A stretch of 64,000 nucleotides of DNA from Thermodesulfobacteriota bacterium (GTDB taxonomy: Bacteria > Desulfobacterota_D > UBA1144 > Nemesobacterales > JAJCZQ01), in assembly GCA_965215275.1 (NCBI GenBank), contig OZ244044.1, positions 1,632,001 to 1,696,000 of the forward strand. Reading direction: 5' to 3'. The notes under the pieces are model-generated. The model was not told where the DNA came from. It saw only the letters and a list, made by a program, of their open reading frames with translations, and searched no databases. The translations under genes and the position numbers were made by a program. This document shows, piece after piece, positions 17,074 through 48,501 of this stretch. Positions within the stretch are counted from its first letter, which is position 1, and the number at the start of each line of letters is the position of its first letter.

Positions 17074-17103
17074 TTGACATTCATTCAGGATACAAAGTAG
17101 AAT
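17074..17103 (+). promoter_or_regulatory. Sigma70-type promoter of surface gene 1
   Basis: TTGACA (17074-17079), 18-nt spacer, TAGAAT (17098-17103); conserved in the duplicate at 18314. Confidence 0.7.
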
Positions 17104-17112
17104 AAAATAGTT

Positions 17113-18050
17113 ATGAACATGTTATTCAGAGCAATACCCCCCCCCCTTATAATTCAGTAATTCCCCTTTTCTTTCTTCTTTGCCTTGTATCCGTTGAGGC
17201 ATATGGCCAGATTAATAATTGTGACTCCAGTGCAGATATTGAAGCTACGCTGCAACTGGACGGAATGGAAAGTCGCTATACTTTAGCAGATGCCAATGAC
17301 CTGGATTATTTTCAGATAGAGGTAACAGGTTCTGTTATGGTAGATATAGAGGTAGTCATGGTAGTTGCGGCTTTACCGACAGACTACAGGTTACAGTTGT
17401 GTGACAGCAATGATGATCTGATAGCCAGTGATACTGATGATTTAATTCTGAACGTTATGGATCAGCTTGAACCGGGAACGTACTATATCGTTATGGGAAA
17501 CAGCAGAGGTGTCGCATTATACGATATTGCAGTAATGGGTACCATAATTAATCCACCTGATCCTGACCCTAACATACCAACCTTTGGCAGTGAAACGATA
17601 GATGATCAGGATTACATAGCAGGGAATCCAATAACACCAGTAACTCTGCCTGCTGCAACGGGAGGGGATGGAGCATTAACATACAGCCTGACTCCTGCAT
17701 TACCAACCGGACTGGATTTTAACGCAGGTACTCGAGAGATAAGCGGGACACCCACTACTGTAACGAGCAGGACTACTTATACATATACTGTAACAGACGA
17801 TGACGGAGATACGGATGATTTGAACTTCAGGATCAGTGTAGAGGTTCCTCCTGCTCCGCCACCGCCAGGACCGACACCAACACCACGAAGACCGACAACA
17901 TCAGGTACTGATACAGGCGGAGGTGGAGGATGTGCGGTCTCCGATCAGAGCAACGTTGTTCCTGATCTGCTCGGAGCAGTGGCATGTCTGATGCTTATAC
18001 CCGTGTCAGTAGTGATCAGAAGGAAGATAATGTCTCAGATAAATATGTAG
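17113..18050 (+). CDS. Surface protein 1: signal peptide, PPC-like domain, one Ig-like (He_PIG-type) repeat, Pro linker, Gly-Cys-TM sorting tail; frameshifted at C10
   Basis: ATG 17113 MNMLFRAIPPP then stop at 17158; the body frame reads YNSVIPLFFLLCLVSVEAYGQ... into ORF 17265-18050. Confidence 0.85.
17137..17146 (+). repeat. Poly-C tract (C10), putative phase-variation switch
   Basis: C11 or C8 would restore the frame. Confidence 0.85.
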
Positions 18051-18313
18051 CAACGCGGTCTTTTCCAGGATGTTAAACTAACTAATATTTTTCCCATCAG
18101 AATAATGGTCTGACCTATTTCAGTGAAGATTTCTATAATTTCTTAACCCCTGTCCAGGAAGATTAAAACGGTCTCCTGTCGTTTTATGATCACCTTAGGA
18201 AGAAGTTGCTGTTTAATGAATGGGAATTATCTGCCTGATTACCTGAAAACTTAGATTACTTCTCTGCACTGACCTTGAAGTTTTGAACGGGTCGTTTAGC
18301 AAAGAAATTATTC

Positions 18314-18343
18314 TTGACATTCGGTCAGGGTACAAAGTAGAAT
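18314..18343 (+). promoter_or_regulatory. Sigma70-type promoter of surface gene 2
   Basis: TTGACA-18 nt-TAGAAT. Confidence 0.7.
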
Positions 18344-18352
18344 AGAAAAGTT

Positions 18353-20106
18353 ATGAACATATCTTTTAGAGTAATACCCCCCCCTTTCTATCTAAGTTAG
18401 TAATTCCCTTTTTCTTTCTTCTGTGCCTTGTATCCATTGAGGCATATGGACAGATCAATAACTGTGACACCAGTACCACCGATCTCAATGATCCCTTATA
18501 CGGCTGTCAGTGGCATCTGAAAAATACAGGACAGCTTGGGGCTGTAACTACCTCTGGAGAAGATATAAACATAGAAGGGGTATGGGATGATAATGTATTC
18601 GGTGCTGGAATTAATGTGGCGGTGGTAGATTATGGTATGCAAACCGGTCACGAGGACCTTGCTGATAATGTAAATACCAGCCTGAATCATGATTATTCAG
18701 GAAGCAGTAACATATACGACCCTTCAGAAACTCGTGGTACACGTGTATCGGGAGTTATAGCAGCAGTGGGAGATAACAGCCTTGGGGTAAGAGGCGTGGC
18801 ACCACAGGCAGGCATCTATAGTTATAATTTAGCTGGCAACTTCAGCGGTGCCAACGCAAAGGATGCCATGGTCCGTAACAGAGATACAACGGCTGTATCC
18901 GTCAACAACTGGGGACCGAATGACCTGCCTCTTCTCAGAGAGGCTTCATCAGATTGGGAAGAAGGAGTGGGAACGGGTATAAGTGAAGGGTTTGGTGGTA
19001 AAGGGGTATTTTATGTGTGGGCGGCCGGGGACGGAGATAAAAGGGCAGATCAGGCTAATTTTGATGAGTATTCCAGCTACTACGCTGTAACTGCCGTATG
19101 TTCGGTAGATGGAGAAGGGAACAAGAGTTCTTTTTCAGAAGAAGGAGTAAATCTTTGGGTATGTGCTCCAGGAGAAAATATTACAACTACTGATAATAAC
19201 AATGAATATATTTTTGATGCAAGTGGAACAGCATATTCAGCAGCACAGGTTGCAGGTGTGGCGGCACTGATGAGGGAGGTAAACGGTGACCTTAGCTGGA
19301 GAGACCTTAAACTGATACTTGCAACTTCAGCTCGTAAGAACGACGCTTCTGACACAAGCTGGGAGACGGGAGCACAGAAGTACGGTTCTGGTTCAGAAAA
19401 TTATAATTACAATCCTAAGTATGGTTTTGGTGTGGTAGATGCAGAAGCAGCAGCAGGACTTGCTGAAAGCTGGACTAATGTTCCAAGGATGAGAACTCAG
19501 ACCGTTTCCTCCGGGACTATTGATATGGCAATCATCGACCACGATGACATAACCGGAGTAGACGGAGAAACTATTTCCAGACTGACAATACCGGATACTT
19601 CTCTTTCTTTTACAGAGTTTGTAGAGGTTGAGTTTAATTTCTCTCACACGTTCTTGCCAGATCTGGAAATACAGATAACCTCCCCTGACGGTACTGTGTC
19701 ACAGCTTACTGAGGAATATACAGCAGGAGCGATATTACTCGTACTTAACACTTCACTCACTTCAAGTGACTTTGATTACACGAACAAAACTCATCGTTTT
19801 GGTTCAGCCAGGCACCTTGGAGAAGACCTTGCCGGAGAATGGATTTTGAAAATAACTGATCATCATAATGGAGGTTCAGGGATTTTACACTCGTGGAGCA
19901 TTAAAGTTTATGGTCACGGGAGGGAAGATACAGTTGCACCACCGCCACAAGGTCCAGTGTCAGATAGTGATACAGGTGGAGGAGGATGTGTGGTCTCTGA
20001 TCAGAACGAAGTTGTTTCGAATCTGCTTGGAGTAATGGCATGTCTGATGCTTATACCTGTATCAGCAGTGATCAGAAGAAAGATAAGGTCTCAGATAAAT
20101 ATGTAG
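18353..20106 (+). CDS. Surface protein 2: signal peptide, inactive kexin-like S8 domain, P domain, Gly-Cys-TM sorting tail; frameshifted at C8
   Basis: ATG 18353 MNISFRVIPPPFYLS*; the body frame reads FLSKLVIPFFFLLCLVSIEAYGQ...DPLYGCQWHLKNTGQ into ORF 18616-20106; LSWRD and YGFGVVDA kexin-like motifs. Confidence 0.87.
18377..18384 (+). repeat. Poly-C tract (C8), putative phase-variation switch
   Basis: C9 would restore the frame. Confidence 0.85.
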
Positions 20107-20242
20107 CAACGCGGTCTTTTCCAGGACACTTAACTAACTAATATTTTCCCCATCAGAATATCTGCTGGCTGCGATACCTGTTCTTTAATATCAGGCAACA
20201 GAGCATGTAACGCCCGGTTTTTTTAATTAAAGGGCCGTCTGA

Positions 20243-20317
20243 TGGAGCCAACGAGGGGAGTCGAACCCCTGACCTGATCATTACGAGTGAACTGCTCTAC
20301 CACTGAGCTACGTTGGC
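20243..20317 (-). tRNA. tRNA-Thr(CGT)
   Basis: Reverse complement GCCAACGTAGCTCAGTGGTAGAGCAGTTCACT-CGT-AATGATCAGGTCAGGGGTTCGACTCCCCTCGTTGGCTCCA: acceptor stem, D arm, T-loop, encoded CCA. Confidence 0.96.
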
Positions 20318-20448
20318 TTTGCAAGAAAATTTAAAAGATCCATACGATCTGTAATCGTTACGGTTAAACAGTATACAGTAAAGTGCCTGTTTACTAAATC
20401 ATGCGGGAGATATTGGTTTAACATTAAACGCACCGGCAAATTTCGCTG

Positions 20449-21855
20449 TTATGTTTCGGACGACGCACCGGTCAAAATAAGGTCTGCGGCTTTTTGTCCG
20501 CTTTTAATGCAATCTGGTATTCCTATACCGTCATACGCGTTACCCGCAACTGCTACGGTTCCCAGACCCGCCGTTATATGATCTATCTTTTTGATCAGGT
20601 CTGAATGTCCTAAATTGTATTGAGGTATAGCGTTAAGGTATTTTTTTATTCTGACGAACAGGGGTTTTATATCTGTGTTCAGTATCAGTCTGAACTCGTC
20701 GATAAGCAGATCGGTTATTTCATGTTCATTTTTACGGGTCAGGTTCAGATTAAGCGTTCCGCCGGCAAAACATCTGACCGTTTCGTACCCTTCTTTACTC
20801 ATATACGGGAATTTACGACTTGTGAAAGAGCACGCCAGTATGTTCATTTTTTCTGAAGGAGGAACAACGATACCTATGCCTTCGGGAAAATCCTTCAGGT
20901 CTTTTCTTGAAACTGCCATGTTGACGACGACCGAGGACGCACATTCGATCTTTCCCAGCGTACTGGACAGACCAGCGTCTATGCCTTTAGCAAGTTCAGA
21001 CGCGGTATCAGGGGGAACTGCAAGAACGACCGCGTCAGCAATGTACGTGTTATTTCTCGTGTCCTTTAGTATCCAGCCGTTACCTTCTCTGGAAATTGAC
21101 GTTACCTCACGTCCATAATGAAAATTAACCCCGCTTATAGCTTTAACAAGGCCGTCGACCAGTCTGCTCATACCTCCCTGAAGAGATAAGAACAGGCCAT
21201 ATCTTGCTCCGCTTTCAGCTTTTGAAGGTGAATACTTTTCCTGCAACCCTTTGATCACGCTACCGAATTTTTTCTCCATTGATATAAATTCGGGTAAGAC
21301 GGAGGCAGCGCTCAGCTTTTTTGTATCCCCGGTATAGATCCCTCCGAGCAGGGGTTTGGCGGCTTTTTCCAGAAGGGCGTTCCCAAATCTCCTTTTAACG
21401 AACTCATCCACGCTCTCTTCCTCTTCGGTCTCTTTTACCGGGACGTGCTGTTCGTATAATATCCTTTCCTTTTCCTCCACGGAGAAAAAATCGCTCATCA
21501 TAAATGAATTTAAATCTGAAGGGGACATGAGAAAAAAACCATCTGGCAGGGCTTTCAGTTTGCCACCCAGATATACAAAGCATTTTCTGTTGTTCGTGTT
21601 GACGGGGATCAGCTCGGGTCCTAATCCTACCTCCCTGCTTATCTCCAGTGCCCAGGGCTTTGAAGTAATAAAGGAATCGGCTCCTTCTTCAACTATAAAT
21701 CCGTCTTCTTTTAAGGTGGAGATCGTTCCTCCCGGCGTGTTGCTTTTCTCTATTATATCTATCTCCAGAGCCGCTCCGAGTTCTTCGGTAAGTTTACTCA
21801 GATGGTATGCACTGCTTAAACCGGAGATGCCGGCACCAATTATTGCGATCTTCAT
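20449..21855 (-). CDS. hemY: Protoporphyrinogen/coproporphyrinogen oxidase (HemY type)
   Basis: GAGISGL, EEGADSF, IPQY, GIGIPDCI. Confidence 0.94.
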   Translation of the reverse strand: MKIAIIGAGISGLSSAYHLSKLTEELGAALEIDIIEKSNTPGGTISTLKEDGFIVEEGADSFITSKPWALEISREVGLGPELIPVNTNNRKCFVYLGGKLKALPDGFFLMSPSDLNSFMMSDFFSVEEKERILYEQHVPVKETEEEESVDEFVKRRFGNALLEKAAKPLLGGIYTGDTKKLSAASVLPEFISMEKKFGSVIKGLQEKYSPSKAESGARYGLFLSLQGGMSRLVDGLVKAISGVNFHYGREVTSISREGNGWILKDTRNNTYIADAVVLAVPPDTASELAKGIDAGLSSTLGKIECASSVVVNMAVSRKDLKDFPEGIGIVVPPSEKMNILACSFTSRKFPYMSKEGYETVRCFAGGTLNLNLTRKNEHEITDLLIDEFRLILNTDIKPLFVRIKKYLNAIPQYNLGHSDLIKKIDHITAGLGTVAVAGNAYDGIGIPDCIKSGQKAADLILTGASSET

Positions 21856-21864
21856 CGGGTAGCT

Positions 21865-22824
21865 CTATTGACGTGGCATGTGTCTTACGACCTCGTCACG
21901 GATAGCTCTGATGAACAGGTCATTGTCGTTGACGGTCTTGGCAACGTGTAAGTTCACTCCGGCTTTTTCCGCGGTTTCGCGGGCCTCTATGCCGATGTCG
22001 AAAAGCACTTCAACGTGGTCACACATAAATCCTATTGCCTGTATCACTATGTTCTTTATTCCCTTGTTCCCCAGTTCCTCTATAACGTCGCAGACGTCAG
22101 GTTCAAGCCAGGGAGTATCGGGAGAACCACTTCTGCTCTGGTAGGCGGTCATCCAGTTCCTGTGCTGCAGGTTTTCCGCAACTAATCTGGCTGATCTTTC
22201 GAACTGTGTAGCATAAGGTGAGGCTTCGGCCATTTTTACGGGGATACTGTGTGCCGTAAATATTAGTTTTGTGTTTTCCAGCTCCGGACCGTTTATTTTC
22301 TCAAGACATTTTCTGATCTGAGCGCTGCTGCTCTCTATGAACAGGGGATTATCAAAAAGTGGCTCGGTATAAACGAACTCTATATCAGCCCCTGACCTTG
22401 CAACTGCCTCGCTGACGTCCCTTTGATATCTTTGCCAGCTGGCGTCGCACTGGTGCAGAGCCATTATCACGCCTATTGCCCTGCTGACCCCCAGGTCCGC
22501 TATCTTTTTTACGCTGTCGTATATAAAAGGATGCCAGTTCCTCATACCGATAAACACCGGGACCTCGTATCCGTCTTCTGATAACATATCCTCTAATTTT
22601 TCTGCCTGCTTTCTCGTCAGGTCGTTCAGAGGTGATCTGCCGCCAATGAGCTTATAATGATGTGCCACTTCTTTTAACCTGTCTTCAGGTATTGAAAATC
22701 CACTGGCTACGTTTTTAAGAAAGGGGATCACGTCTTCGGGTTTTTCAGGACCTCCGTACCCTATGAGCAGCACCGCTGTATTTTGAGGTTCGTTCTTGAG
22801 CCTGGTTGCTGTGTTCTTATTCAC
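21865..22824 (-). CDS. hemH: Ferrochelatase
   Basis: GGRSPL, FTAHSIP, YQSRSG, WLEPD, DHVEVLFD. Confidence 0.95.
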   Translation of the reverse strand: MNKNTATRLKNEPQNTAVLLIGYGGPEKPEDVIPFLKNVASGFSIPEDRLKEVAHHYKLIGGRSPLNDLTRKQAEKLEDMLSEDGYEVPVFIGMRNWHPFIYDSVKKIADLGVSRAIGVIMALHQCDASWQRYQRDVSEAVARSGADIEFVYTEPLFDNPLFIESSSAQIRKCLEKINGPELENTKLIFTAHSIPVKMAEASPYATQFERSARLVAENLQHRNWMTAYQSRSGSPDTPWLEPDVCDVIEELGNKGIKNIVIQAIGFMCDHVEVLFDIGIEARETAEKAGVNLHVAKTVNDNDLFIRAIRDEVVRHMPRQ

Positions 22825-22901
22825 TGAGGTCAGTACTATATAAGTTCAAATTGGAATTTACTGCGAGTTATTATACCACCGGTCTCTGCGTCTTGCGTCC
22901 C

Positions 22902-24860
22902 TTACTTGTTTTTGTTCATTTTATACGAATGCTCATGGACGGTGTCAACTAAGGACAGAACGTTGTCCACGGGAGTGTTGGGCAATATGCCGTGACCAAG
23001 ATTAAAGATATGTCCCGGTCTGCCGCCTGCCTCGTTAAGTATCCTCTTTGCCTCCTCATTGACCCGTGACCGGGTGGAAAGCAGGACTACCGGGTCCATA
23101 TTACCCTGTATTGCCTTGTTGTAACCTATCTGCTTCCATGCTGTTTTTATACTGACCTTCCAGTCAACGCCCACGACCCCGCAGCCTGTCCTGGCGATCT
23201 GCTTCAGGAGCGATGACGTGTCCGTGCCAAAAAGGATCACCGGCACGTTCCTGTCTATCATGCTCACAAGTTTTTTTGTATACGGAAAAACAAACTCCCT
23301 GTAGTCTCCGGGAGATAGGCAGCCGACCCAGCTGTCGAATATCTGAACGGCGTCTGCACCTGCTTCGATCTGTCCGTTCAGATAGGCCGCGGTGGCATCG
23401 GTAAGTCCGTTCATAAGCAGGTCCCATGATTCGGGGTCCTGAAGCATCAAGGTCTTGGTTTTTGCATAATTTTTGGACCCGCTTCCCTCGATCGCGTAAG
23501 ACGCAAGTGTGAAAGGAGCTCCGGAAAAACCTATTAATGCTTTCCCGGGGTCTAAGGCCTTTCTGGTCAGCCTGATGGCGTCGTAGACGAACTTCATCGA
23601 ATCCGGCTCGAACTCGGGAAGTGAACTGATCGACGATGAGGAGCCGAGTTTCTTACTTATCCTCGGTCCGTCGTTTGTTTGATATTCCAGGTCGAGCCCG
23701 AACGATTCCAGTATAAGCAGAATATCTGAAAATATTATAGCAGCGTCTACGTTCAGCTTTTCAGCCGCCATGAGAGTGACCTCAGCGGCAAGGTCACGGG
23801 TCTTGCACATCTCTGTAAAGGAGACCTTTGATCTGATCTGTCTGTACTCCCTAAGGAAACGTCCAGCCTGTCTCATGATCCAGACGGGTGTATAATCCGT
23901 TGTCTCAAGGTTGCAGGCTTTCAGAAAGACCGGATCTCGTTTTGCATTTTTAGGTCGAGGACCCTGAACGTTTTCCCATACCATGTCGGTCCTTTTCCAG
24001 TTAACGGTCTTTATTCCAAGACCTCGTGCCTTTCTTTTTTTGGTTAAAAGCCTGTTTGCCGTTCTGGCGAGTTCTCTGACCAGGTTTCCCATCCTGGGAT
24101 CGTTTGGTTCGTAATCTGCCGAGATCCCGTATTTTTTCAGGGTTTCCGTTGTAGTTGGCCCTATGGAGCCGATCACGACGTTGGATAATCCTTCATATAG
24201 ATCGTTCTTTGATCCCAGGTCAGAAGCAAGGCTGACGAGATTTACGACCTGTTGTGAACTTGTGAACAGAACAACGTCTTCATCCTTGCTGTGTATCGAC
24301 CGTATTGCAGTTTTAAGGGGCTGCAGGTCATCAGGGAAACCCCACTTGTACACGGTTATGGTCTTTACCTTTGCTCCTCTGTCCTCAAGGTTTTTTAGAA
24401 ATTCCCTGTTCTTGGCACCGTATTCCTGGACATAAATGGTTTTATTTTTAATTTCTAACTCCGAGTCCATGGTAGACAGAACGTCTTTCCATGTGTTTGG
24501 TGAGGGGATCGTTATATCAGGCTTTATACTTATCTCCCTCAGTGCCGCAACGGGTTTTGGACCTCTTGTGACCACGGTGACGTTCTGCAAAGCCGTAGTG
24601 TACTTTTCAAAACCGTCTTTCTTTGTCATAAGGTCAGACAGCATTCGTGTTCCGACCCCGGTGAATAAAACAAGGATATGGACCTTATTGCCGTAAAGGT
24701 CCTTGGCAAAACCGGATATGTCCTTTGACTGTACCGGTACTTCCTTCATGGACGGGGACACTCTGGGAACGCCGTTGTGATAGATGATCAGCCTTTCCAT
24801 TACATTTGAAAGACGGCTTTCAAATGAAGTGACCTTCAGTTTGTTAAAGTGTTCTGTCAT
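22902..24860 (-). CDS. hemE: Uroporphyrinogen-III synthase (HemD)-uroporphyrinogen decarboxylase (HemE) fusion
   Basis: N-half RGPKP, FTSSQQV, SIGPTT; C-half WIMRQAGR, IIFSDIL, FNLGHG. Confidence 0.92.
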   Translation of the reverse strand: MTEHFNKLKVTSFESRLSNVMERLIIYHNGVPRVSPSMKEVPVQSKDISGFAKDLYGNKVHILVLFTGVGTRMLSDLMTKKDGFEKYTTALQNVTVVTRGPKPVAALREISIKPDITIPSPNTWKDVLSTMDSELEIKNKTIYVQEYGAKNREFLKNLEDRGAKVKTITVYKWGFPDDLQPLKTAIRSIHSKDEDVVLFTSSQQVVNLVSLASDLGSKNDLYEGLSNVVIGSIGPTTTETLKKYGISADYEPNDPRMGNLVRELARTANRLLTKKRKARGLGIKTVNWKRTDMVWENVQGPRPKNAKRDPVFLKACNLETTDYTPVWIMRQAGRFLREYRQIRSKVSFTEMCKTRDLAAEVTLMAAEKLNVDAAIIFSDILLILESFGLDLEYQTNDGPRISKKLGSSSSISSLPEFEPDSMKFVYDAIRLTRKALDPGKALIGFSGAPFTLASYAIEGSGSKNYAKTKTLMLQDPESWDLLMNGLTDATAAYLNGQIEAGADAVQIFDSWVGCLSPGDYREFVFPYTKKLVSMIDRNVPVILFGTDTSSLLKQIARTGCGVVGVDWKVSIKTAWKQIGYNKAIQGNMDPVVLLSTRSRVNEEAKRILNEAGGRPGHIFNLGHGILPNTPVDNVLSLVDTVHEHSYKMNKNK

Positions 24861-24980
24861 GCAGGTAACCTGTTATGAACTGTACGTAACTGCTCACCTA
24901 ATTTATCCGTTATAATTGATTTTTCTAATTATTGTTGAGATACTTTTAGCAGATTATCTTTTTTTACTGGAATTATTTCA

Positions 24981-26249
24981 TTGTCATTTTCCGTCTACTA
25001 TAAGAACGATGAGCTTTATATGGAGGGCGTTCCCGTCAGGGAAGTTGCCGAAAGCGTTGGGACCCCGTGTTTTCTTTACAGTCACAGGTCGATAGTGGAC
25101 AGCTTTAACGGCTACTCGAAGGCCCTTTCAGATATAGATCACGTGATCTGTTTTTCGGTCAAAGCCAATTCCAATATTGCGGTCCTCAGGCTGTTTGCCG
25201 ATATGGACGCCGGCTTTGATATAGTGTCCGCTGGAGAATTAAGCCGCGTTATCAAAGCAGGTGGCGATATGGCTAAAGTAGTTTTTTCAGGCGTTGGCAA
25301 GAAGGAAGCGGAGATAGCGGCTGCCATAGACGCTGGAATACTTTTTTTTAACGTTGAGTCCGTCGAGGAACTTAACTGCATTAACGAGACCGGTATGAAA
25401 ATGGGAAGGAAAGCCCCGGTCGCCCTGAGGGTCAATCCGGATATAAATCCCAGAACGCACCGTTATATCTCCACGGGTTTTAAAAAGAGTAAATTCGGAA
25501 TTCAGCTGGACAGGTCCGTTCAGATATATAAAAATGCTTCAAAAATGGAAGGGATAGAGATAGTTGGAATAGATGCACATATCGGATCTCAGATATTCGA
25601 CCTGTCCTCATTTACCGATTCTGTGGAAAGACTGGTCTTGCTTGCTGACACGTTAAAAGGTGAAGGTATTGATATCAGATATATGGATATAGGGGGTGGG
25701 CTGGCCATAAATTATAAAGCGGACGAGACGCCTCCTTCTGTCGTTGAGTACGCCGAGGTCATTAAAAAGGTCATATCTGAAAAAAGCCCTTATACAGTAA
25801 TAGTTGAACCGGGACGTTCATTAATTGGCAATTCAGGTATAATGGTAACGGAGGTCCTGTATAACAAAGAAGGGACTTCTAAAGATTTTGTTATTGTTGA
25901 TGCTGCTATGAACGACTTGATAAGGCCTGCTTTTTACGACGCTCACCATGAGATCGTTCCGGTTAATATATCAAATTCCGGAACCTGCAAGGTTGATGTA
26001 GTGGGTCCGATCTGCGAGTCTGGGGATTTCCTGGCAACTGATCGAGAACTCCCTGCCGTTTCAAGAGGGGATTACCTGTCGGTGCTAAGTGCCGGAGCCT
26101 ATGGATTTGTTATGTCCTCTAATTACAACTCAAGAACGAGGGCACCTGAAGTAATGGTAAAAGAAAACGAATTTGAGATAATAAAACAAAGAGAGACGTT
26201 TGATGATCTGATCAAAGGAGAAAGGATACCGGGGTTTTTTAAGAGTTAA
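24981..26249 (+). CDS. lysA: Diaminopimelate decarboxylase
   Basis: SVKAN, SKFG, HIGSQ, EPGR, GPICESGD, SNYN. Confidence 0.97.
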   Translation: MSFSVYYKNDELYMEGVPVREVAESVGTPCFLYSHRSIVDSFNGYSKALSDIDHVICFSVKANSNIAVLRLFADMDAGFDIVSAGELSRVIKAGGDMAKVVFSGVGKKEAEIAAAIDAGILFFNVESVEELNCINETGMKMGRKAPVALRVNPDINPRTHRYISTGFKKSKFGIQLDRSVQIYKNASKMEGIEIVGIDAHIGSQIFDLSSFTDSVERLVLLADTLKGEGIDIRYMDIGGGLAINYKADETPPSVVEYAEVIKKVISEKSPYTVIVEPGRSLIGNSGIMVTEVLYNKEGTSKDFVIVDAAMNDLIRPAFYDAHHEIVPVNISNSGTCKVDVVGPICESGDFLATDRELPAVSRGDYLSVLSAGAYGFVMSSNYNSRTRAPEVMVKENEFEIIKQRETFDDLIKGERIPGFFKS

Positions 26250-26313
26250 GGGATCTACGACCTTAATTATCTTTCATGTAATAAAAAACTAATAAAGTAA
26301 TCAGGAGATACAA

Positions 26314-27362: not shown

Positions 27363-27442
27363 TTTGCAGTTTAAGGATAAAATGACAGAATTACCAATAA
27401 TTTTATAGAGTTTCAAGAACTTGGAAGGAGGTTGAGAAAAAA

Positions 27443-30901: not shown

Positions 30902-30905
30902 ACGG

Positions 30906-33143: not shown

Positions 33144-33148
33144 ACAGA

Positions 33149-34814: not shown

Positions 34815-34845
34815 AAGGTACATAGATCTTGATTTAGATATTTAG

Positions 34846-39417: not shown

Positions 39418-39426
39418 CGTAGCCGT

Positions 39427-39606
39427 TCAGAAGATCTTTAGAGCCGTGAGAAGTATATAGATCGCAAAGAGTATGAAAGCCACTCTTCTGAAAAAACCCA
39501 TTATTCTGCTCTTTCCGGCCTTTGTCAGTTTTTCACCGCAGTTGAAGCACGTACTGGTCTTCATGGAAATTTCAAAACCACATTCTTCACACTTTATAAC
39601 GTTCAT
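39427..39606 (-). CDS. Small zinc-ribbon membrane protein (59 aa, not in the ORF track)
   Basis: Manual translation MNVIKCEECGFEISMKTSTCFNCGEKL...FFRRVAFILFAIYILLTALKIF*; GAGG upstream; fills the operon gap. Confidence 0.8.
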   Translation of the reverse strand: MNVIKCEECGFEISMKTSTCFNCGEKLTKAGKSRIMGFFRRVAFILFAIYILLTALKIF

Positions 39607-39615
39607 TTCTGCCTC

Positions 39616-41076
39616 TTAACTGTTCAGCCTTGACGAGGTGGCTTCTACGATAACGGGATGATATTTTCGTATTTCTTCCATAAGGTCCTGCATAACGGTC
39701 TTTATGTCCCACTGGGCTGCTTCTGACGTTCTTAGGTTTACAAGATGGAAAAGTTCCCACAGATCAAACTTACCGGTCACCCGTCTGTTATGGGCATTTG
39801 TTACCACGTAATGAGCGGCCGTGTCGAGTCCCTCGTTCATCAGTTTTTCAAACATATCTTCACTCCGTTCTGTTGCTTTAAGTAACAGCTCCTCGACCCC
39901 TGCTTCTTTGATCCTGGGGGGAACAGTTATGCCGTTATAAACGGAAGGTTCACCAAATATCCAGTTTACCTTTCTGTGTCTGAGAAGCTGATGCCAGCAA
40001 GCCTCACTTATTACAAGCTCTGCTTCGTAGTCTATGAGTTTAAACGCTTTTACCGGATTGTCATGTTTACCGAGATGTTTGACGGTTTCTTTAAATAACG
40101 ACGTTAGCTGCTCGGACGTAAGTGATTCTACAAGTCCTGATACTTTACTGTACTTACTGTCGTGACGTTCGAATATTACTGCTTTAATTATCTTTTTTAA
40201 TGCAATGTCCTGCGGGTTGTCCGAATTATCTCCCGTCCAGCTTATCAGGTTCACCCTTGCTGAGGGTCTGTTGTAAACTGATGTATCGCACATTTTGTCT
40301 GACAGCCTTTCAAATATACCGCGGGTTTTTGTTATATACCCCTTTTCGCTTGCGTATTTTATTAAAGTTGGTACAGAAAAACCTACCTCTTGCTTGATCT
40401 CGTTCGCCCTTGAACGAACTTCTGGGTATTTACTTGACAGAAGCACCGCAAGGGCATCTTCAACGGCTCTTGCGTTGGCTGTTATACCCAGGTTGGTATA
40501 AGTGGACAGATTAAGTGCGTACCTGGCGTCTTCAAATGCTATTTTCTCCAGTACTTTGTCGTCTGACGACGGGTCTTTTTTTTTCAGATAGCTTATCAAA
40601 GCATTGTATAAGTCGATATATAGGTCATACGTGTTCAGCGACAGCTTCTGAAACTCTTTGTTTAAGGATCTTTTACTGCTTACCTCCACTGGGGTGTAAA
40701 AACCACCCCTGACCGGTTTCTGGTACCTCTGCGAATACTCTGTAAAGGAAAGATATTCATTGGAAAGTTCAAGAAGGGAAGAGAACAGCCTTGATACTTT
40801 CTCTACACCTACGTGGACGCAGGCATGTTCGGCAACGGAAGAATGTCCATAGTTCAGGACCCATTTTTCGTGAAATTTACTGGCCCTTTCCTGCCCCATC
40901 TGTTCCTCTTTAATTACAGTGCTGATATTTTCCCTGAAGCTCTTCATACTTCTGCTTACGTAGGCGAAAATAACCGCAACGACTTCCTCGGGAATGTTGT
41001 TTACCGTGTAGATATCTTTGTCAAGGTTGGAAACGTACTGCTTTATTTTATCGTTTTCTTCTTTATTGTTGCTCAT
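39616..41076 (-). CDS. thyX: FAD-dependent thymidylate synthase, long two-domain form
   Basis: YGHSSVAEHA, TEYSQRY, EDARY, QLLRHR, LRT...AQWDI. Confidence 0.85.
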   Translation of the reverse strand: MSNNKEENDKIKQYVSNLDKDIYTVNNIPEEVVAVIFAYVSRSMKSFRENISTVIKEEQMGQERASKFHEKWVLNYGHSSVAEHACVHVGVEKVSRLFSSLLELSNEYLSFTEYSQRYQKPVRGGFYTPVEVSSKRSLNKEFQKLSLNTYDLYIDLYNALISYLKKKDPSSDDKVLEKIAFEDARYALNLSTYTNLGITANARAVEDALAVLLSSKYPEVRSRANEIKQEVGFSVPTLIKYASEKGYITKTRGIFERLSDKMCDTSVYNRPSARVNLISWTGDNSDNPQDIALKKIIKAVIFERHDSKYSKVSGLVESLTSEQLTSLFKETVKHLGKHDNPVKAFKLIDYEAELVISEACWHQLLRHRKVNWIFGEPSVYNGITVPPRIKEAGVEELLLKATERSEDMFEKLMNEGLDTAAHYVVTNAHNRRVTGKFDLWELFHLVNLRTSEAAQWDIKTVMQDLMEEIRKYHPVIVEATSSRLNS

Positions 41077-41102
41077 TGTGACCGGTCTCTGCAGTAAGTT
41101 GT

Positions 41103-41861
41103 TTATGAGATTGGGATATGTTTTTTTACCTCTTCGGCTATGTAGGGTACGACCTGATCTGGCTTTCCATACAGGACCGCACTTACGTAATCATCAGCGG
41201 CGGTTTCCGTCTCGCTTATTATTACGACCTTATCTCCCTTGTTCATTATCTGAAACGGAAAAGATGCCACTGGTTCGTTTTCCAGATCGGCCCCGACTAT
41301 AATAAAAAGGTCACAGTTTTGGAGCTTGATCCATGACTCTCTTATATCCCAGTGTGGAAGGGGTTGTCCCGGAAACGATATGGGAGGCTTGATAAGGTCA
41401 CTGTTACAGACCGTGCAGGTAGGGACCTGCTTGCCTTTTTCAAGCTGACCCAGGGCTTCCGTCATTGGCTGGTCCTTGCCACAGTCCGGACAGGTTGCCC
41501 AGTGAACGTTAGCGTAGATCTCAATTACGTTGTTGTTGCCGGCTTTTTGATGAAGTCCGTCTCCGTTCTGAGTTATTATACAACTTACATTTGAAAACAT
41601 GCTAAGTTCATATATAGCCTCGTGGGCGGGTGTGGGTGTAGCAGAGGAGATCTGTGGATAATGTTCCTTTAGTTTATTCCAGTATTCCTGTCTGGTTTGA
41701 ACGTCGTTTTTAAATTTTCGTATATCAGGGTTGAAGCTTATATTTGTGACGTTCTGTATGCCGGAATCAAATAAGAGCTCCGGTCCAGTAAGAAATACTA
41801 TGTTTGCCGATAGACCGATCCAGTTTATAACGGCGGAGAGGGCGGTGTCTTCTTGTTTCAT
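41103..41861 (-). CDS. Sir2-family protein with degenerate catalytic motifs
   Basis: PTPAH, ITQNGDGLHQKAG, CxxC...CxxC zinc site; GAGxS and catalytic HG replaced. Confidence 0.85.
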   Translation of the reverse strand: MKQEDTALSAVINWIGLSANIVFLTGPELLFDSGIQNVTNISFNPDIRKFKNDVQTRQEYWNKLKEHYPQISSATPTPAHEAIYELSMFSNVSCIITQNGDGLHQKAGNNNVIEIYANVHWATCPDCGKDQPMTEALGQLEKGKQVPTCTVCNSDLIKPPISFPGQPLPHWDIRESWIKLQNCDLFIIVGADLENEPVASFPFQIMNKGDKVVIISETETAADDYVSAVLYGKPDQVVPYIAEEVKKHIPIS

Positions 41862-41957
41862 TTGGATTTGATTATACTATCTGAACGCTTATTTATCAAT
41901 AAAGATGAAAGCTCGCTCTGCCAAAATGAAAGTCCTTAAGAGAGATAGGTAATATTA

Positions 41958-42305
41958 ATGCAATATAAAATAAAAGAACTTACTGAATTCAGTGATAACG
42001 CTCTCTATGTTCTTTGGGAAGATGGACATAAAAGTATATATCTGTATACGGACCTGAGGGATATATGTCCGTGCGCGGGTTGCGGCAAGCCAAGAAAGTC
42101 GGCCAGGGAAAGCGGCAGACCTCCGTTTAAAAAAAGAATTCAGGTTTCAGCCAAAGAAAGATCAGATATAAGACCCTTGAAAATAGAGAACATCGGCCAC
42201 TATGCTATAAGATTTTACTGGAGCGATGGACACAGCACCGGTATATACACCTTTGATCTGTTAAGAGATAACTGCTCCTGCGACTTATGTAACGTACAGG
42301 GATAG
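41958..42305 (+). CDS. DUF971 / GBBH-like N-terminal domain protein
   Basis: WEDGH, LRDICPCAGC, GHYAI, WSDGHSTGIY. Confidence 0.92.
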   Translation: MQYKIKELTEFSDNALYVLWEDGHKSIYLYTDLRDICPCAGCGKPRKSARESGRPPFKKRIQVSAKERSDIRPLKIENIGHYAIRFYWSDGHSTGIYTFDLLRDNCSCDLCNVQG

Positions 42306-42311
42306 GGTCTG

Positions 42312-42334
42312 CAACTGACCTGATCGGTCAGTTG
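42312..42334. terminator. Hairpin between convergent genes
   Basis: CAACTGACC-tgatc-GGTCAGTTG. Confidence 0.55.
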
Positions 42335-42378
42335 ACCTTTCATCTCACTTACCGCATAGGCAGCACTTTAATTAAGCT

Positions 42379-43245
42379 CTAATTCGCCCGTGCACTTACT
42401 GCCAGCCAGTTCCTTATAACGAACAGTTTTCCATCCTTGTCTTTCTCGCCATGCAGTAATATGGAGGGAGCTACTGCGTTTTTCATGGCCGTGGAAGCAT
42501 CATCGGTCGGATAGCCGTGAAGGGCACCGGCGGCGTATTGCTGGAACTCACTTATATGTTCCCAGGCATCCTGGGTGAGACGTGCAGCAAACTCCTGGGC
42601 GTTGACCAGTTTGAACCCTGCTTTGCTCACCAGATCTTCATAGTATGACCTTGGATGGAATTTTGCTGCTTCTGCTTTCTTATTGTCCTTCCCCCGCTTA
42701 ATACCTTTTTCCCTTAACAACAGGACGGCGTTCTTTACCTGTGTTCTGTAAAAAGGGATAGTGTTTGCGGGTCTTGCTTCTTCGTAGAAGGCGGTATTGA
42801 AAAAAAGCCAGCCGTTTGGCGTCAGTGTTTCTTTTATCTTTATCAGACTTTCTATTTGTGCTTTCTCGTTCAGATAGTGTATACCGTTCCCCCAGACTGC
42901 GACGTCAACGCTCCCTTTCGGCAGGTTAATATCTTCAATTGGCGAATTGATGAACTTAAGCTTTTCTATGTGATTTTCGAGTTTGGACTGGGCTAATTTC
43001 AGAGCGTCTGAAGATTGGTCAAGGCACATTACGACCGACTCTCTCCACTTTGAAGGCAGGTGGTTAAAGAAAAGTTGCACCATTGTTCCCGCACCGGTCG
43101 CCACGTCCAGTATCTTGTCTATTTTCCCCATACCTTTATCTACCATAAGCTGTACCCAGCTAGCTATTATATCTCCGTTGACCTTTTTATAATCCTCGGT
43201 ATTAGCAAAAGGTTCATAATTATATGTTTCCTGCTTGTCTGACAT
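42379..43245 (-). CDS. Class I SAM-dependent methyltransferase
   Basis: ILDVATGAG motif I, LTPNGWLFF. Confidence 0.88.
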   Translation of the reverse strand: MSDKQETYNYEPFANTEDYKKVNGDIIASWVQLMVDKGMGKIDKILDVATGAGTMVQLFFNHLPSKWRESVVMCLDQSSDALKLAQSKLENHIEKLKFINSPIEDINLPKGSVDVAVWGNGIHYLNEKAQIESLIKIKETLTPNGWLFFNTAFYEEARPANTIPFYRTQVKNAVLLLREKGIKRGKDNKKAEAAKFHPRSYYEDLVSKAGFKLVNAQEFAARLTQDAWEHISEFQQYAAGALHGYPTDDASTAMKNAVAPSILLHGEKDKDGKLFVIRNWLAVSARAN

Positions 43246-43496
43246 CTTGACCGTCTCCCTGAAACTTTATTTTAAAATCGAAATTAACTTTAGTAAAGTA
43301 TAGAACATTTAAGCAAACATTCAATTATCTAAACTATACTCTCTTTTTTTGATGTCTTTTAAGTGATTACTTTAATGAACTTTGGTTCAGAAAAACCAAT
43401 TCAGGTTCATATCTGGAAATTTCCGAGTATCATTACCTTGATGATATTTATGATCCGCGAAGGAACAACTATACTAATTTCAGGAAGGACTGGGAT

Positions 43497-44645
43497 ATGA
43501 TAAACAAAGAGCGTATGACCGAACATTTAATGGAACTTATAAGGATAGATAGTCCGTCCAGGCGTGAAAAGAGGGTTGCATTAAAACTTCAAAGGGAAAT
43601 GGAGGAGCTTGGAGGGAAGTGCATATACGATGAAGCGGGAGATGTAGTAGGGGGAGAAGTAGGCAATCTGTTGGTGAAGATAAAAGGTAATAAGAATGGA
43701 GTTCCAGCTTTTTTTCTCTCTTCTCACATGGACACGGTTGGTCCCGGAGAGGGTATAAGACCGGAAATAGAAGATGGAAGGATGAGAAGCGACGGCACGA
43801 CGATCTTAGGTGCTGATGATAAAAGCGGGGTTTCGATAATAGTGGAAATAATAAGAACGCTCAAGGAGCAAGATTTACCACATGGCGATATTGAGATTGC
43901 ATTTACGATATGTGAAGAGGTAGGACTTTTAGGAGCAAAGTACTTTGACGTATCAAGTCTGAATTCCCGTTATGGAATAGTTCTGGATAGCAGTACCCCG
44001 GACAGGCTTGTTCTTAAATGTCCGTCTTCTGATATTTTAACGATAAGAGTACACGGACTTGAAGCTCACGCGGGTCTTTGTCCAGAGAAAGGGATCAGTG
44101 CGATACAGTTAGCCTGTCGTGCAATATCCAATATTACAACTGGCAGGATAGATCATGAAACTACTTCAAATATTGGTATTATAGGAGGAGGGGTTGCTGC
44201 CAACATAGTTCCAAACTTCGCTGAGGTTGTCCTGGAAGTCAGGAGCCATGATAATGCAAAACTTGATGAACAGGTCAAGCATATATGTGACAGTTTTCAT
44301 CAGGAAGTAAAAAGCTGCTCGGTTATTGTAGATGGTCAGGAAAAGAGGCCAGTTGTAGATATTGACGTCGACCACGTTTATCGTAAGATGGACGTTCCTG
44401 CGACAGCCAGGGTCACTCAATTAGTGGACAAGGCCGTTTCAGACCTTGGGTATACAATAAAGCACCATACTACTGGAGGAGGTTGTGACGCGAACTATTT
44501 TAATAATAAAGGCGTGGAATGTGTAAACCTTGGAACGGGTATGTACGAACTGCATACGGTTAACGAGTATTTAGTACTGGATGAGTTTTACAGAAGTGCA
44601 GATATAGTTCTGGAGACGTTAAAACTGAACGCCGCTGATGGTTAA
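43497..44645 (+). CDS. M20 family peptidase T-like metallopeptidase
   Basis: SHMDTV, LGADDKSG, EEVG, GGCDAN, HTVNE. Confidence 0.93.
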   Translation: MINKERMTEHLMELIRIDSPSRREKRVALKLQREMEELGGKCIYDEAGDVVGGEVGNLLVKIKGNKNGVPAFFLSSHMDTVGPGEGIRPEIEDGRMRSDGTTILGADDKSGVSIIVEIIRTLKEQDLPHGDIEIAFTICEEVGLLGAKYFDVSSLNSRYGIVLDSSTPDRLVLKCPSSDILTIRVHGLEAHAGLCPEKGISAIQLACRAISNITTGRIDHETTSNIGIIGGGVAANIVPNFAEVVLEVRSHDNAKLDEQVKHICDSFHQEVKSCSVIVDGQEKRPVVDIDVDHVYRKMDVPATARVTQLVDKAVSDLGYTIKHHTTGGGCDANYFNNKGVECVNLGTGMYELHTVNEYLVLDEFYRSADIVLETLKLNAADG

Positions 44646-44893
44646 GAGAAAAAGGGGCGTTAATACTGATAGATCATGGCAGTAAAGTAAAAGAGGCTAA
44701 CGACCTGCTTGTAAAGGTCAGGGAAAAGCTGCAGAGCAGTCCGGACTGTAAATTCGATATTGTGGAACACTGCCACATGGAACTTGCCTCTCCCAGTTTG
44801 GAAGACGCGTTTTCCGTTTGCGTCAGTTCAGGTGCGGAGGAGATAGTGGTACATCCGTATTTTCTGGCACCGGGCAGGCATTCAAAGACTGAT
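44638..44893 (+). pseudogene. Truncated, frameshifted copy of the CbiX/SirB chelatase gene
   Basis: Near-identical to 13999-14253; extra G (AAAAGGGG vs AAAAGGG) after codon 6; homology stops just before the promoter at 44898. Confidence 0.92.
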
Positions 44894-44897
44894 GTAC

Positions 44898-44926
44898 TTG
44901 ACATTACAGCAAAGCAGAAGTAAAAT
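44898..44926 (+). promoter_or_regulatory. Sigma70-type promoter of surface gene 3
   Basis: TTGACA (44898-44903), 17 nt, TAAAAT (44921-44926). Confidence 0.75.
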
Positions 44927-44935
44927 ATAAATGTT

Positions 44936-47900
44936 ATGAAAAATTTCATGAAAAGTTCAAACATAAAAACACGTAGTTCCATTACCCCCCCCCCCGTGTA
45001 TACCTGACCTTTCAGTCTGGTATAAGTATTTTGTAAGAACAATGTTTAAGATAATACCCCCCCCCATCTAAGTTAATCCTTTCTTTATTCTTATTTTTTC
45101 TGTTTATACTGGTAATAGCTGCAAAAGGGCAGAGCAGCTCAGAAGAAACATTATCTGAATGCAGAGGTATGAGTGCAGACACGGAAGATCCGTTATACGG
45201 ATGTCAGTGGCATCTGAAGAACACTGGGCAGTTAAGTTTTTCCGGAAAGGAAATAACGGCAGGAGAAGATATAAACATAGAGGGAGTGTGGAACGAAGAC
45301 GTATACGGTACCGGAATTAACATAGCAATAGTAAGTGACGGTATCGACCTTTCACATGAGGACCTTTCTGCTAACGTCCGTTCCGGACTGCACTATGATC
45401 ATTCATACGGTTCATCCTTTAGTGGAACACAAGCGGCAGGTGTTATTGCAGCAACTGGATATAACGGACTGGGAGTAAGAGGAACTGCACCTGGTGCGAG
45501 TATATACAGTTACAGGTTATCCGGTGATATCAGTGAAGCGGACGCGGTGGTCCGTAATAAGGAAATAACTGCAGTATCGGTTAACGGCCTGGGATCTGAG
45601 GACGGATATTATTTTCAGGAGGCTTCATCTTCCTGGGAAGAAGGAGTGGAACTTGGTATAAAGAAAGGGTTTTATGGTAAAGGGGTGTTTTACGTCTGGG
45701 GAGCAGGGGATGGGCATGAGAATAACGATCAGGCTAATTTTTCTGAATATTCTAATTACTACGGCGTAACTGCCGTGTGTTCAACAGACGGCTTTGGAAA
45801 GAAGAGTATATTTTCAGAAGAGGGAGTAAATCTATGGGTATGTGCACCTGGTTCTGATATTGTAACTACTGATAACAACAACGATTACATTGTAACTTCC
45901 GGAACATTTCTTTCAGCTTCACAGGTTGGAGGAGTGGCAGCACTGCTGAGAGAGATAAACGGACAGCTGAGCTGGAGGGATATAAAGCTTATACTTGCGG
46001 GTTCAGCACGGCAGAACGATTTTTTTGATATGAGCTGGGAGACTGGAGCTGTTAAATACGGTTCTGATACGGAAAGATATAATTATAATCCTAAGTATGG
46101 TTTTGGCGTGGTAGACGCAGAAGCAGCTGCAGAGCTTGCAAAAAGCTGGAAAGGCGTTGGTGAAATGAGGACCGTTACAGCTTCTTCAGATAATGAGATA
46201 ACAATTCCTGATGGAGAAGGAGATGGAGAAGGAGAAGCAGACGGGATCCTTGTTTCCAGACTTATGATACCGGACCTTGAAGAAATATTTACGGAATTCG
46301 TTGAAGTAGAACTTGTTTTTTCGTGTGACTGCTTACAGGACCTTGATATAAAAATAACCTCTCCTTCCGGGACAATATCGGAACTTGTAAGGGAGTCTGT
46401 AAGTGGATCTTCGGATGAAGAAAAAAACTGCGTCAGTTACCTGAGAAGAACACATCGTTTCGGGTCGGCTAAACACCTCGGAGAAGACCCTTCCGGAGAA
46501 TGGATTCTCAATATAGCCGATACTGCTTCCGGAGATGAAGAAAATGGAGAAAATACTTTTACCTTACACTCTTGGAGCATTAAGGTATACGGGAATTTTT
46601 ATCAGGGACCTGGCAGTGAGACAGGTCCCAAAGATCATAATGTAAGTTTTGGCAATGCAACGATAGCTGAACAATCGTATAAAGTAGGTGAAGCAATAAA
46701 ACCATTAGTGCTGCCTCTCCCAATAACAGGGGGTGGTTACAGTCTTTCATTGTCTCCTAAATTACCTGATGGATTGAGTCGTAGCTTCCGAACTATAAGT
46801 GGAACACCAACTACTGCAACACCTGAGACCCTTTATACATGGACCGCCAGAGATAGTAACAGTGGAGATACGGATGAGTTAACGTTCAATATTACGGTAG
46901 AATCTGACATACCAACCTTCGGCAGTGAGACGGTAGAGGATCAGACGTGGTTTAATGGCAGCGCAGTAACGTTAACTCTGCCTCAGGCTACCGGAGGTAA
47001 CGGAACTTTAAATTACAGTTTAACTCCTGCTGAACCAAGTGGACTTACCTTTACCGAAAGCACCAGAATGTTAAGTGGAACACCCAGCATTTCTGCACAT
47101 CTACTTCCTTTAACTGTTACTTATACTTACAAGGTAACTGATGATGACGGTGATTCTGACAGTATTACTTTCTCTATTACTATAACAACGGACCTGGCCT
47201 TTGACAGTGGGGATGGGTCTTTTACTGATTTTTATACACTAATAGCAAATGCATTATCATCAATACCCACTCTAACGAGTAATTCGTTGCCTGCTGCAAC
47301 GGGAGGTACTCCTCCATATATATACAGTGTTACTCCTGTATTACCAGACGGATTAGCAGCGTATAACTCTAATGACAGAGTTATACGCGGGACACCAACT
47401 ACTGCAACGCCCAGGACTACCTATACGTATACCGTTACTGACAATAACGGACATACGGCTGAATTGATGTTCGATATTGCTGTAAGAGCACTCTTCATAA
47501 GTGCTGCTGTGATAAATGATAAGGTGTATTTAACCGGTACAGAAGTAACAGAAGTGCTGCCTGCAGCAGATGGACATAATGGAACGTTAACGTACAGTTT
47601 AACTCCCAATTTACCTTCCGGACTGGATTTTACCCCTGCCACCCGAGAGATAAGTGGAACTCCAGATACTGCAACTTCCAGAAGCACTTATACTTATACG
47701 GTAACTGACACAGATGGATTTAAGAACTCAAAGACGTTCAGTATTACTGTAAGAGCAGAACCGAACACAATGCCGACCTTCGGCAGTGAAACTATAGATA
47801 ATAAAGTGTATATAAACGGAGAAGCAGTAAATGAAACACTGCCAGAAGCAACGGGAGGGAATGCTCCTTTAACTTACAGTTTAACTAGTCTTGGGTTAAT

Positions 47901-48501
47901 TGATCTTAATTTACCAACTGAATTGGGATTTAATCCTGATACCAGAGTGTTAAGTGGAACACCCAACCTTGATGCACGAATACTTCCTGTAACTCGTACA
48001 TATACATATACAGTAACGGACGCAGATAATGATACAGATGAACTGGAGTTCAGTATTACAGTGGAAGAAGACAGCGAACCGGACTTCAGCGTGACGACGA
48101 TAGAAGATCAGGTGTACATGGGGAGATCAATAAGTTTGCCGGTAGCAACGGGAGGGAATGCACCGTTAGTATACAGTATAACGCCTCCCTTACCTCCTGG
48201 GTTGAGATTGGACAGAGACACAGGGATAATAAGCGGGACGCCCGCGAGTGCGTCGTCTGAGAGGACCTACACGTACACGGTAACGGACAGGAATGGAGAC
48301 ATTAAAGAGTTGACCTTCAGGTTCAGTGCAGCGGCTCCGCCACCGACAGGTAGTGATTCAGGCGGAGGTGGTGGAGGATGTGCTGTCTCAGATCAGAGCA
48401 GCACTGCTTCTGATATTCTCGGAGTAATGGCATGTCTGATACTTATACCTGTATCAGTAGCTATCAGAAGGAAGAGAAGGTCTCAGGTAAAAAAGCAGTA
48501 A
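44936..48501 (+). CDS. Surface protein 3: signal peptide, inactive kexin-like S8 plus P domain, six Ig-like (He_PIG-type) repeats, Gly-Cys-TM sorting tail; frameshifted at C11 and C9
   Basis: ORF 45169-48501 extends upstream in frame to SKLILSLFLFFLFILVIAAKGQ at 45067; ATGs at 44936 and 45042 are out of frame across the tracts. Confidence 0.85.
44985..44995 (+). repeat. Poly-C tract (C11)
   Basis: C10 joins ATG 44936 to the open frame that includes ATG 45042. Confidence 0.75.
45057..45065 (+). repeat. Poly-C tract (C9), putative phase-variation switch
   Basis: C8 or C11 joins MFKIIPP to the signal peptide h-region. Confidence 0.85.

Follow-up and report, generated by a model that had tools for sequence, protein, structure and literature searches.

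Phase variation at poly-C/G contingency loci is already known from Campylobacter and from genes of the Neisseria nalP/mspA type; NalP is a subtilase, and its tract lies near the 5' end of the gene. G runs of 5, 6, 7, and 8 nucleotides (nt) in C. jejuni NCTC11168 number 303, 18, 0, and 4, with a mode of 9 (PMC3401435), and strains carry 5 to 81 phase-variable genes (PMC6321876). The stretch analyzed here (the window) comprises 64,000 nt of the genome of a Thermodesulfobacteriota bacterium of the order Nemesobacterales (GenBank assembly GCA_965215275.1, contig OZ244044.1, forward-strand positions 1,632,001 to 1,696,000) and contains, between window positions 17074 and 48501, three + strand genes with 5' poly-C tracts. 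These genes are out-of-frame members of a family of 59 genes, the tracts of which likely act as slipped-strand switches, such that few of many predicted surface-anchored proteins, most lacking catalytic residues, would be displayed per cell. Membership among contingency loci rests on sequence features, since switching itself was not observed; the features found were over-represented tracts of at least 8 nt, their placement between start and signal stretch, an intact gene and promoter, and differences in tract length.

The layout that the initial annotation had described for the three genes was recovered, with promoters, tracts, hydrophobic signal stretches, and C-terminal tails at the places it had given. 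The frames opened by the ATGs close soon after the tract (15, 15, and 9 residues), the signal stretch shares its frame with the long open reading frame, and the predicted in-frame lengths of 312 amino acids (gene 1) and 584 amino acids (gene 2) were reproduced. The C10 at 17137, C8 at 18377, C11 at 44985, and C9 at 45057 were the only C/G runs of at least 7 in the window, for which the initial annotation had noted, by eye, no other C runs of 8 or more; unbroken frames contain the A8 runs of glmU and glmS as well as the T9 run of thyX. The thyX gene (window 39616 to 41076) encodes 486 amino acids with two ThyX stretches.

The source genome is a single contig of 1,990,023 bp (42.5% GC, 99.87% complete). 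Runs of C and G of lengths 5, 6, 7, 8, 9, and 10 numbered 787, 78, 0, 6, 68, and 32, with a gap at 7 and a mode at 9. Based on independent bases, 48 runs of exactly 7 were expected and none was found, and 139 runs of at least 8 were found where 13 were expected. Fourteen of the 139 long C/G runs lay within a frame without stops for 50 codons to either side, compared with 607 of 865 C/G runs of 5 to 6, 161 of 272 A/T runs of at least 8, and 1,761 of 3,164 A/T runs of 6. Long A/T runs and short C/G runs thus lie mostly in open frames, and it is specifically the long C/G runs at which frames are broken. A single paralogous family, encoding predicted surface proteins with S8 and immunoglobulin (Ig) domains, accounts for 80 of the 139 tracts. 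Among the 59 tract genes outside the family, 20 were scanned and 14 matched Pfam, including five DNA methylases, two restriction-modification genes, two glycosyltransferase-like genes, and one each of TPR, SAM methyltransferase, sulfotransferase, AAA, and a conserved membrane family. Poly-C tracts also occur about 100 codons into the genes of another, TPR-like paralogous family and are in frame in some copies and not in others (genome positions 19539, 20737, 31545, 1068992, 1899949, 1901573, 1914729, and 1964984). Three paralogous lipoprotein-like genes carry poly-G just 5' of the start (94069, 1295437, and 1301357); the one scanned had no Pfam match.

The family had been described as a three-locus one; a genome search for tail and tracts enlarged it to 59 genes. 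The tail pattern recovered 58 genes, and the tail profile recovered 61 places, namely, these 58, a split 59th gene, a remnant tail at genome position 424606, and a weak match. The 58 genes span about 186 kb, or 9.4% of the genome. A tract between start and signal stretch, with runs of 8 to 13 cytosines, is present in 51 genes, single in 23 and double in 28. The ATG lies 8 to 10 nt past the -10 box in the 49 genes with a recognized promoter, and family starts show no evident Shine-Dalgarno sequence, which the rest of the genome uses; translation of the family genes may be near leaderless. Tracts in frame were 4 of 23 single tracts (two more via an alternative ATG), 8 of 28 first tracts, and 5 of 28 second tracts, with both tracts in frame in 1 of 28 double genes, such that 5 of the 51 tract-bearing genes were fully in frame. 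The description of the family as entirely off thus holds for the three window genes but not family-wide, and three off genes in one window are expected from the rate of 5 in 51. Gene bodies were intact from signal to tail in 53 of 58 genes, all three window genes among them, and split in 5. Tract length differed in 25 of 39 paralogue pairs with identical 20-nt flanks on both sides. Of the 58 genes, 45 are on the + strand; the arm on which + would be the lagging strand, judging by GC skew, holds 34 of the genes, 22 of them in + orientation. Two catalytically intact members contain internal in-frame tracts, at genome positions 668426 (C17) and 605571 (C9), where a shift would cost the protein its P-domain or its anchor. 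Another member is split by a G13 at 518332 and has, in addition, a G11 immediately 5' of its ATG.

Loss of catalytic residues in the encoded domains, which the initial annotation had overlooked, was found in all tract-bearing S8 domains. Genes 2 and 3 encode an S8 domain followed by a P-domain, with kexin as the best solved match (E = 7.5e-43). The D-H-S triad was retained in 0 of 49 tract-bearing S8 domains; it reads D-R-A in gene 2 and S-S-F in gene 3, each with Asp at the oxyanion position. D-H-S/N was kept by five tract-less genes in the S8 alignment, by the 59th gene, and by 83 of 86 outside homologues; the gene at 430973 keeps D-H-S with Asp at the oxyanion site. A quick tree, with rows of <200 residues removed and 8 outside rows, grouped 48 tract-bearing S8 rows as a single clade with a support of 99; 430973 was its neighbor, and the intact genes were basal. 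Since these rows form one clade, tract gain and triad loss count as one event and not as a repeated correlation. Family S8 domains have diverged to a median identity of 67%, and the expansion was found in the source genome alone among 41 genomes searched. ESM Atlas matches below 0.9 were treated as leads and given no weight.

Ten positions of the C-terminal tail are invariant in 58 of 58 genes (Cys, three Gly, Ser, Gln, two Leu, Pro, and Ser), following the motif GGG-C-x-x-S-x-Q plus L-x-L-I-P-x-S, with a hydropathy of 2.1 to 2.3 over 19 residues. This tail fits the tripartite Cys-containing CTERM design as set out in 10.1101/2023.06.07.544157, and for the MYXO-CTERM signal, Cys-dependent cleavage by MrtX is described in PMC11980579. 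The sole CPBP protease of the genome, at 680809 to 681450, lies directly 5' of a family gene, and its best matches are to myxosortase models. It occurs in 30 of 40 relatives, only a few of which gave weak tail matches, the tail profile being too lineage specific to bear on co-occurrence of tail and protease across the order; three relatives of another family bear similar Gly-Cys-transmembrane-Arg ends. No match in the genome was found for rhomboid PF01694 (GlyGly-CTERM/rhombosortase; control, 14 of 14 matched) or for exosortase PF09721 (PEP-CTERM), and the MYXO-CTERM model did not list the family tail at an E value of 10. A GspD secretin above the cutoff and a GspF-family match make a type II route available. 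The surface anchoring proposed by the initial annotation is thus supported by the Cys tail, the myxosortase-like protease, and the secretin, and the Cys tail would be the likely means of anchoring, although this is inferred only.

Gene 1 (17074 to 18050, +) starts with a sigma70-type promoter, TTGACA-18-TAGAAT (17074 to 17103; 11 of 12 consensus matches, top site in the promoter scan). Its ATG at 17113 sits 9 nt past the -10 box, and translation is possibly near leaderless. The present off frame yields a 15-codon peptide (17113 to 17160); the C10 tract (17137 to 17146) is out of frame and would be in frame at 8 or 11, with 312 amino acids predicted at C11 and the long frame, including the hydrophobic stretch, closing at 18050. 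The body past the tract (17147 to 18050) has a predicted signal stretch, a PPC-like beta-sandwich (a weak Pfam match), one He_PIG Ig domain, a Pro/Thr linker, and the tail (17916 to 18041), which consists of a Gly run, the invariant Cys, a transmembrane stretch, and a basic cluster; the domain scan found neither an S8 nor a P-domain in this gene. The structure model of P0137, a gene 1 orthologue 90% identical to it (mean predicted local distance difference test score [pLDDT], 76), resembles the SraP cadherin-like and ColG collagen-binding domains; a single-sequence fold of gene 1 itself (pLDDT, 45) was discarded. Contig depth in public run X1 dips over gene 1 (232 to 267, compared with 372 to 454), an observation that was given no weight.

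Gene 2 (18314 to 20106, +) has the promoter TTGACA-18-TAGAAT (18314 to 18343; likewise 11 of 12 matches and the top scan site), an ATG at 18353 with a 15-codon peptide in the present off frame (18353 to 18400), and a C8 tract (18377 to 18384), which is out of frame and in frame at 9, giving 584 amino acids. Its body (18385 to 20106) contains a predicted signal stretch, the kexin-like S8 domain, the P-domain, and the tail (19972 to 20097). The 240 bp upstream of gene 2 are an 83% copy of the region upstream of gene 1, and the two genes are evidently a tandem duplication. In another assembly, P0004 has an S8 body like that of gene 2 together with a tail like that of gene 1 (window 17113 to 20106), which suggests recombination between the tandem copies. 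The pair is flanked by tRNA-Thr(cgt) (20243 to 20317, -).

Gene 3 (44898 to 48501, +) carries two tracts in series. Its promoter and tail were as first described, but the GTTATG start (ATG at 44936) precedes the C11, and the C9 has another ATG, at 45042; the C11, not recognized as a switch by the initial annotation, is a second out-of-frame tract. The outer promoter, TTGACA-17-TAAAAT (44898 to 44926; 11 of 12 consensus matches, top site in the promoter scan), is followed by the outer start and a 23-codon leader of the present frame (44936 to 45007), which stops 34 nt short of the inner ATG. Tract 1 (C11, 44985 to 44995) would be in frame at 10 or 13. A putative decayed inner promoter, CTGACC-17-TATTTT (45004 to 45032), recognized by alignment of the inner and outer modules, ends 9 nt 5' of the inner ATG, which opens a 9-codon peptide of the present frame (45042 to 45071). 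Tract 2 (C9, 45057 to 45065) is out of frame, would be in frame at 8 or 11, and sets the frame of the signal peptide. The body (45066 to 48501) encodes a predicted signal stretch, the S8 domain, the P-domain, five He_PIG repeats, and the tail (48364 to 48489). A 359-bp, 91% copy of window 13911 to 14257, the 5' part of cbiX, lies at 44539 to 44897 (+), and its end coincides exactly with the gene 3 promoter; this copy may be a scar of gene 3 insertion. Among the matches listed in a scan upstream of 49 promoters, a long nonfamily copy reaching the promoter was found at gene 3 only. A 418-bp direct repeat (93%) lies 3' of gene 3 (window 48543 to 49100), and shorter pieces resembling it occur at other places in the genome.

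The stretch between the two tracts of double genes aligns with the promoter module of the family (-35 relic, 17 nt, -10 relic, 9 nt, and ATG), and in one double gene the relic still reads TTGACC-17-TACAAT. Because this stretch is a relic of the promoter module, a new promoter-ATG-tract cassette appears to have been stacked upstream of an older one, which is now decayed. A similar cassette, as a short leader, lies upstream of the active protease at 430973. The frame of the inner ATG is the sole open frame between the tracts in 28 of 28 double genes, such that the two tracts cannot compensate for each other. With tract 1 in its commonest state (14 of 28), the stop of the leader would lie -1 to 5 nt ahead of the inner ATG in 27 of the 28 genes, a spacing that could allow coupled restart. 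For the other closed frame, the leader stop falls 34 nt before the inner ATG in 24 of 28 genes, gene 3 included. Tract 2 may therefore be regarded as the master switch, with tract 1 as a second gate or dimmer.

Several observations weigh against such switching and anchoring. MutS and MutL are intact in the genome and should damp slippage; their integrity also rules out loss of mismatch repair as the cause of the tracts. Signal-proximal tracts were in frame in 9 of 51 genes, below one third (P = 0.010; paralogues are nonindependent), or in 11 of 51 with two ambiguous starts counted (P = 0.048). No mixed tract lengths were found in the contigs of public runs, with one length at each unambiguous tract, and 5 of 7 orthologue sets shared the same apparent state (two in frame and three apparently off, including gene 1 [P0137]), such that switching would be slow or selected. 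The inter-tract leader shows no clear coding constraint, with stop-making substitutions at 2 of 49 compared with 11 of 135 possible and synonymous substitutions at 10 of 49 compared with 28 of 135 possible. The tail scored below the cutoffs of known models (Synerg-CTERM, 11.4 to 15.3 against 22.5; JDVT-CTERM, 8.8 against 27), as did the CPBP protease on all myxosortase models (65 against 100 for the myxosortase core).

Homopolymer error in a long-read assembly could also account for the frameshifts; it is regarded as extremely unlikely and is largely refuted for genes 1 and 2, although the assembly is a single contig. The C10 of gene 1 was spanned without gaps, at the same length, by contigs of three public runs (X1, X2, and X4), and the C8 of gene 2 was spanned by contigs of X2 and X4, also at the same length, which makes assembly error unlikely there, in line with the argument of the initial annotation against general homopolymer error. 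These runs are three samples of one study, their library type is off record, and one may be the source of the assembly; the comparison used assembled Logan contigs, which lose rare variants, and of the window genes it covered genes 1 and 2. In a second region (L147), X1 contigs matched four further tracts, and run X5, from another study, matched the tract of one in-frame gene with the same C8. A break in an X5 contig around the gene 1 tract (17096 to 17169) lay off the tract edge and was left uncounted, as were indels at L147 positions 15090 and 15160, where paralogues had aligned to the same place. Long A/T runs leave frames unbroken at rates like those of A/T runs of 6, and assembly error cannot produce the excess or the placement of long C/G runs. 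Other assemblies point the same way, since P0137 was called from the same internal start as gene 1. Seven orthologue sets were compared from the protein calls of other assemblies and not from DNA. Two sets differed. P0033, compared with P0134, stops at an internal tract in a shifted frame, implying C10 against the in-frame C17 of the source genome; for the in-frame gene at 1482325, the calls P0005 and P0124, from two other assemblies, begin at an internal start. As the initial annotation had foreseen, gene callers do begin at internal codons (P0001).

Two further explanations accept the out-of-frame tracts as real. If the family were a decaying expansion, most copies would be pseudogenes silenced at mutable tracts, and triad loss would equal loss of function. 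This fits the 46 of 51 genes not fully in frame, the triad gone in 49 of 49 domains, the 5 of 58 split bodies, the remnant tail at 424606, and a strain (run X6) lacking a whole copy, a 4.5-kb segment (L147 4664 to 9185) with a double-tract family gene and a methyltransferase fragment. It is nevertheless very unlikely, since 53 of 58 bodies of 0.3 to 2.1 thousand codons remain intact despite the median S8 identity of 67%, all or almost all copies have kept the promoter, the signal stretch, and the ten tail positions, and orthologues at 90 to 96% identity retain whole frames. Alternatively, the tracts could be recoding sites, with fixed out-of-frame alleles, low steady expression by RNA polymerase slippage or ribosomal frameshifting, and no heritable switching. 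Consistent with recoding, 20 of 28 second tracts were in one phase across three flank contexts (A plus C11, AT plus C10, and ATA plus C9), with lengths of 9 or less in 3 of 10 tracts of the AT context and 10 of 10 of the ATA context (Fisher, P = 0.003), and tract states were mostly common to other assemblies; leak from off repeats has also been described in a mod gene of Mycoplasma (bioRxiv 10.64898/2026.04.01.715767). Phases were mixed family-wide, however (13, 6, and 4 for single tracts; 14, 6, and 8 for first tracts), which rules out a one-direction programmed frameshift as the sole mechanism. Lengths also ranged from 8 to 13 among identical flanks, a sister species has poly-G in promoter spacers, where recoding cannot act, and leak might add to switching instead of replacing it. 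Recoding without switching is accordingly judged unlikely, and slipped-strand switching remains the probable reading. The shared phase of second tracts fits selection for the off state at most loci; some leak by slippage would fit too.

Long tracts were also found in relatives. The sister species, a genome of the same genus (G001; 80% complete), has G9 to G10 in the -35/-10 spacer of Ig and leucine-rich repeat (LRR) lipoprotein-type genes (spacers of 16, 16, 17, and 16 nt); its promoter-spacer poly-G loci are L107, L109, L115, L119 (about 1487), L126, and L130, including two other promoters. Judged from these spacers, this is an independent switch design on a different surface family. A methyltransferase tract is common to both genomes, C9 against C13. 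Two genomes of another family within the order, G011 and G025 (L249 to L252), contained 130 and 113 tracts of at least 9 and 15 and 16 runs of exactly 7; most of the 17 genomes examined had far fewer long tracts. A metagenome pattern scan gave one match (L218), which was given no weight. The window carries F-type ATP synthase and Tol-Pal genes, and flagellin had no match in the source genome; this combination is unlike spirochaetes, and a deltaproteobacteria-like lineage such as "Dadabacteria" is suspected.

If the tracts switch, replication slippage would alter tract length by one base and flip expression. In double genes, the outcome at tract 1 would be fusion, coupled restart at the inner ATG, or an early stop. 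In-frame products would exit by Sec, the CPBP protease would cut at the Cys tail, a lipid anchor would be added, and type II secretion would carry the products to the surface, as in the MYXO-CTERM system. Toward host or phages, the dead protease and Ig domains may serve as variable binding or decoy surfaces, and selection would hold most family copies off. A more far-reaching scenario is offered tentatively, as a possibility that is doubtful as a whole: the stackable promoter-ATG-poly-C cassette would have given rise to a coat on the scale of antigenic variation, built from 51 dead-protease paralogues, 28 of them with a three-level gate (fusion, translationally coupled restart, and off) over a master switch and each protein rare; an uncatalogued Cys signal, with a myxosortase-like enzyme of its own, would hold the coat in place; and large poly-C/G repertoires would have evolved more than once within this uncultured order, on different surface families and at different switch positions. 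With the family, raw reads could show directly whether repertoires of this kind switch in nature. It also presents a possible logic of two tracts, a candidate for a new Cys sorting system, and an example of a protease family that has become noncatalytic surface proteins. Annotation loses the N termini of these proteins.

In Neisseria genes of the porA/opc type, poly-G/C variation occurs in the promoter spacer. It is the Ig/LRR lipoprotein genes of G001 that resemble this type; the window genes differ in family and in switch position. In the open-licence literature, supplements aside, no paper was found on the S8/tail family or on two tracts in series. The Campylobacter loci, as described in PMC3401435 and PMC6321876, are alike in the gap at 7, the mode at 9, and the location of tracts within the coding parts of genes for surface proteins, glycan modification, and restriction-modification. 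The source genome differs in having 139 tracts in 2 Mb, compared with 5 to 81 phase-variable genes per strain (PMC6321876), in the placement of 80 of the 139 at 5' ends of one paralogous family, and in having MutS and MutL and 28 genes with tracts in series. N. meningitidis NalP/MspA are similar in that a coding poly-C of 6 to 15 sets expression of a secreted serine-protease-type protein (PMC3723659); those are single autotransporter genes, whereas the present family has 51 paralogues with no beta-barrel, a Cys tail, and a lost triad. The kexin/furin-like S8 proteins share the S8 plus P-domain architecture, and triad loss is as in C. difficile CspC, but here a dead clade of 48 members is predicted to be surface anchored and switchable. 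The Cys-containing CTERM systems (MYXO-, JDVT-, and Synerg-CTERM) share the invariant Cys, hydrophobic stretch, and basic cluster, dozens of clients per genome, a single CPBP protease (here adjoining a client gene), and a type II secretin; the family tail differs in scoring 8.8 to 15.3 bits against cutoffs of 22.5 to 27, in its own motif, and in clients that are all paralogues. What differs here from these systems is one family holding 80 of the 139 tracts, with 28 stacked switches, catalytically dead cargo, and an uncatalogued tail.

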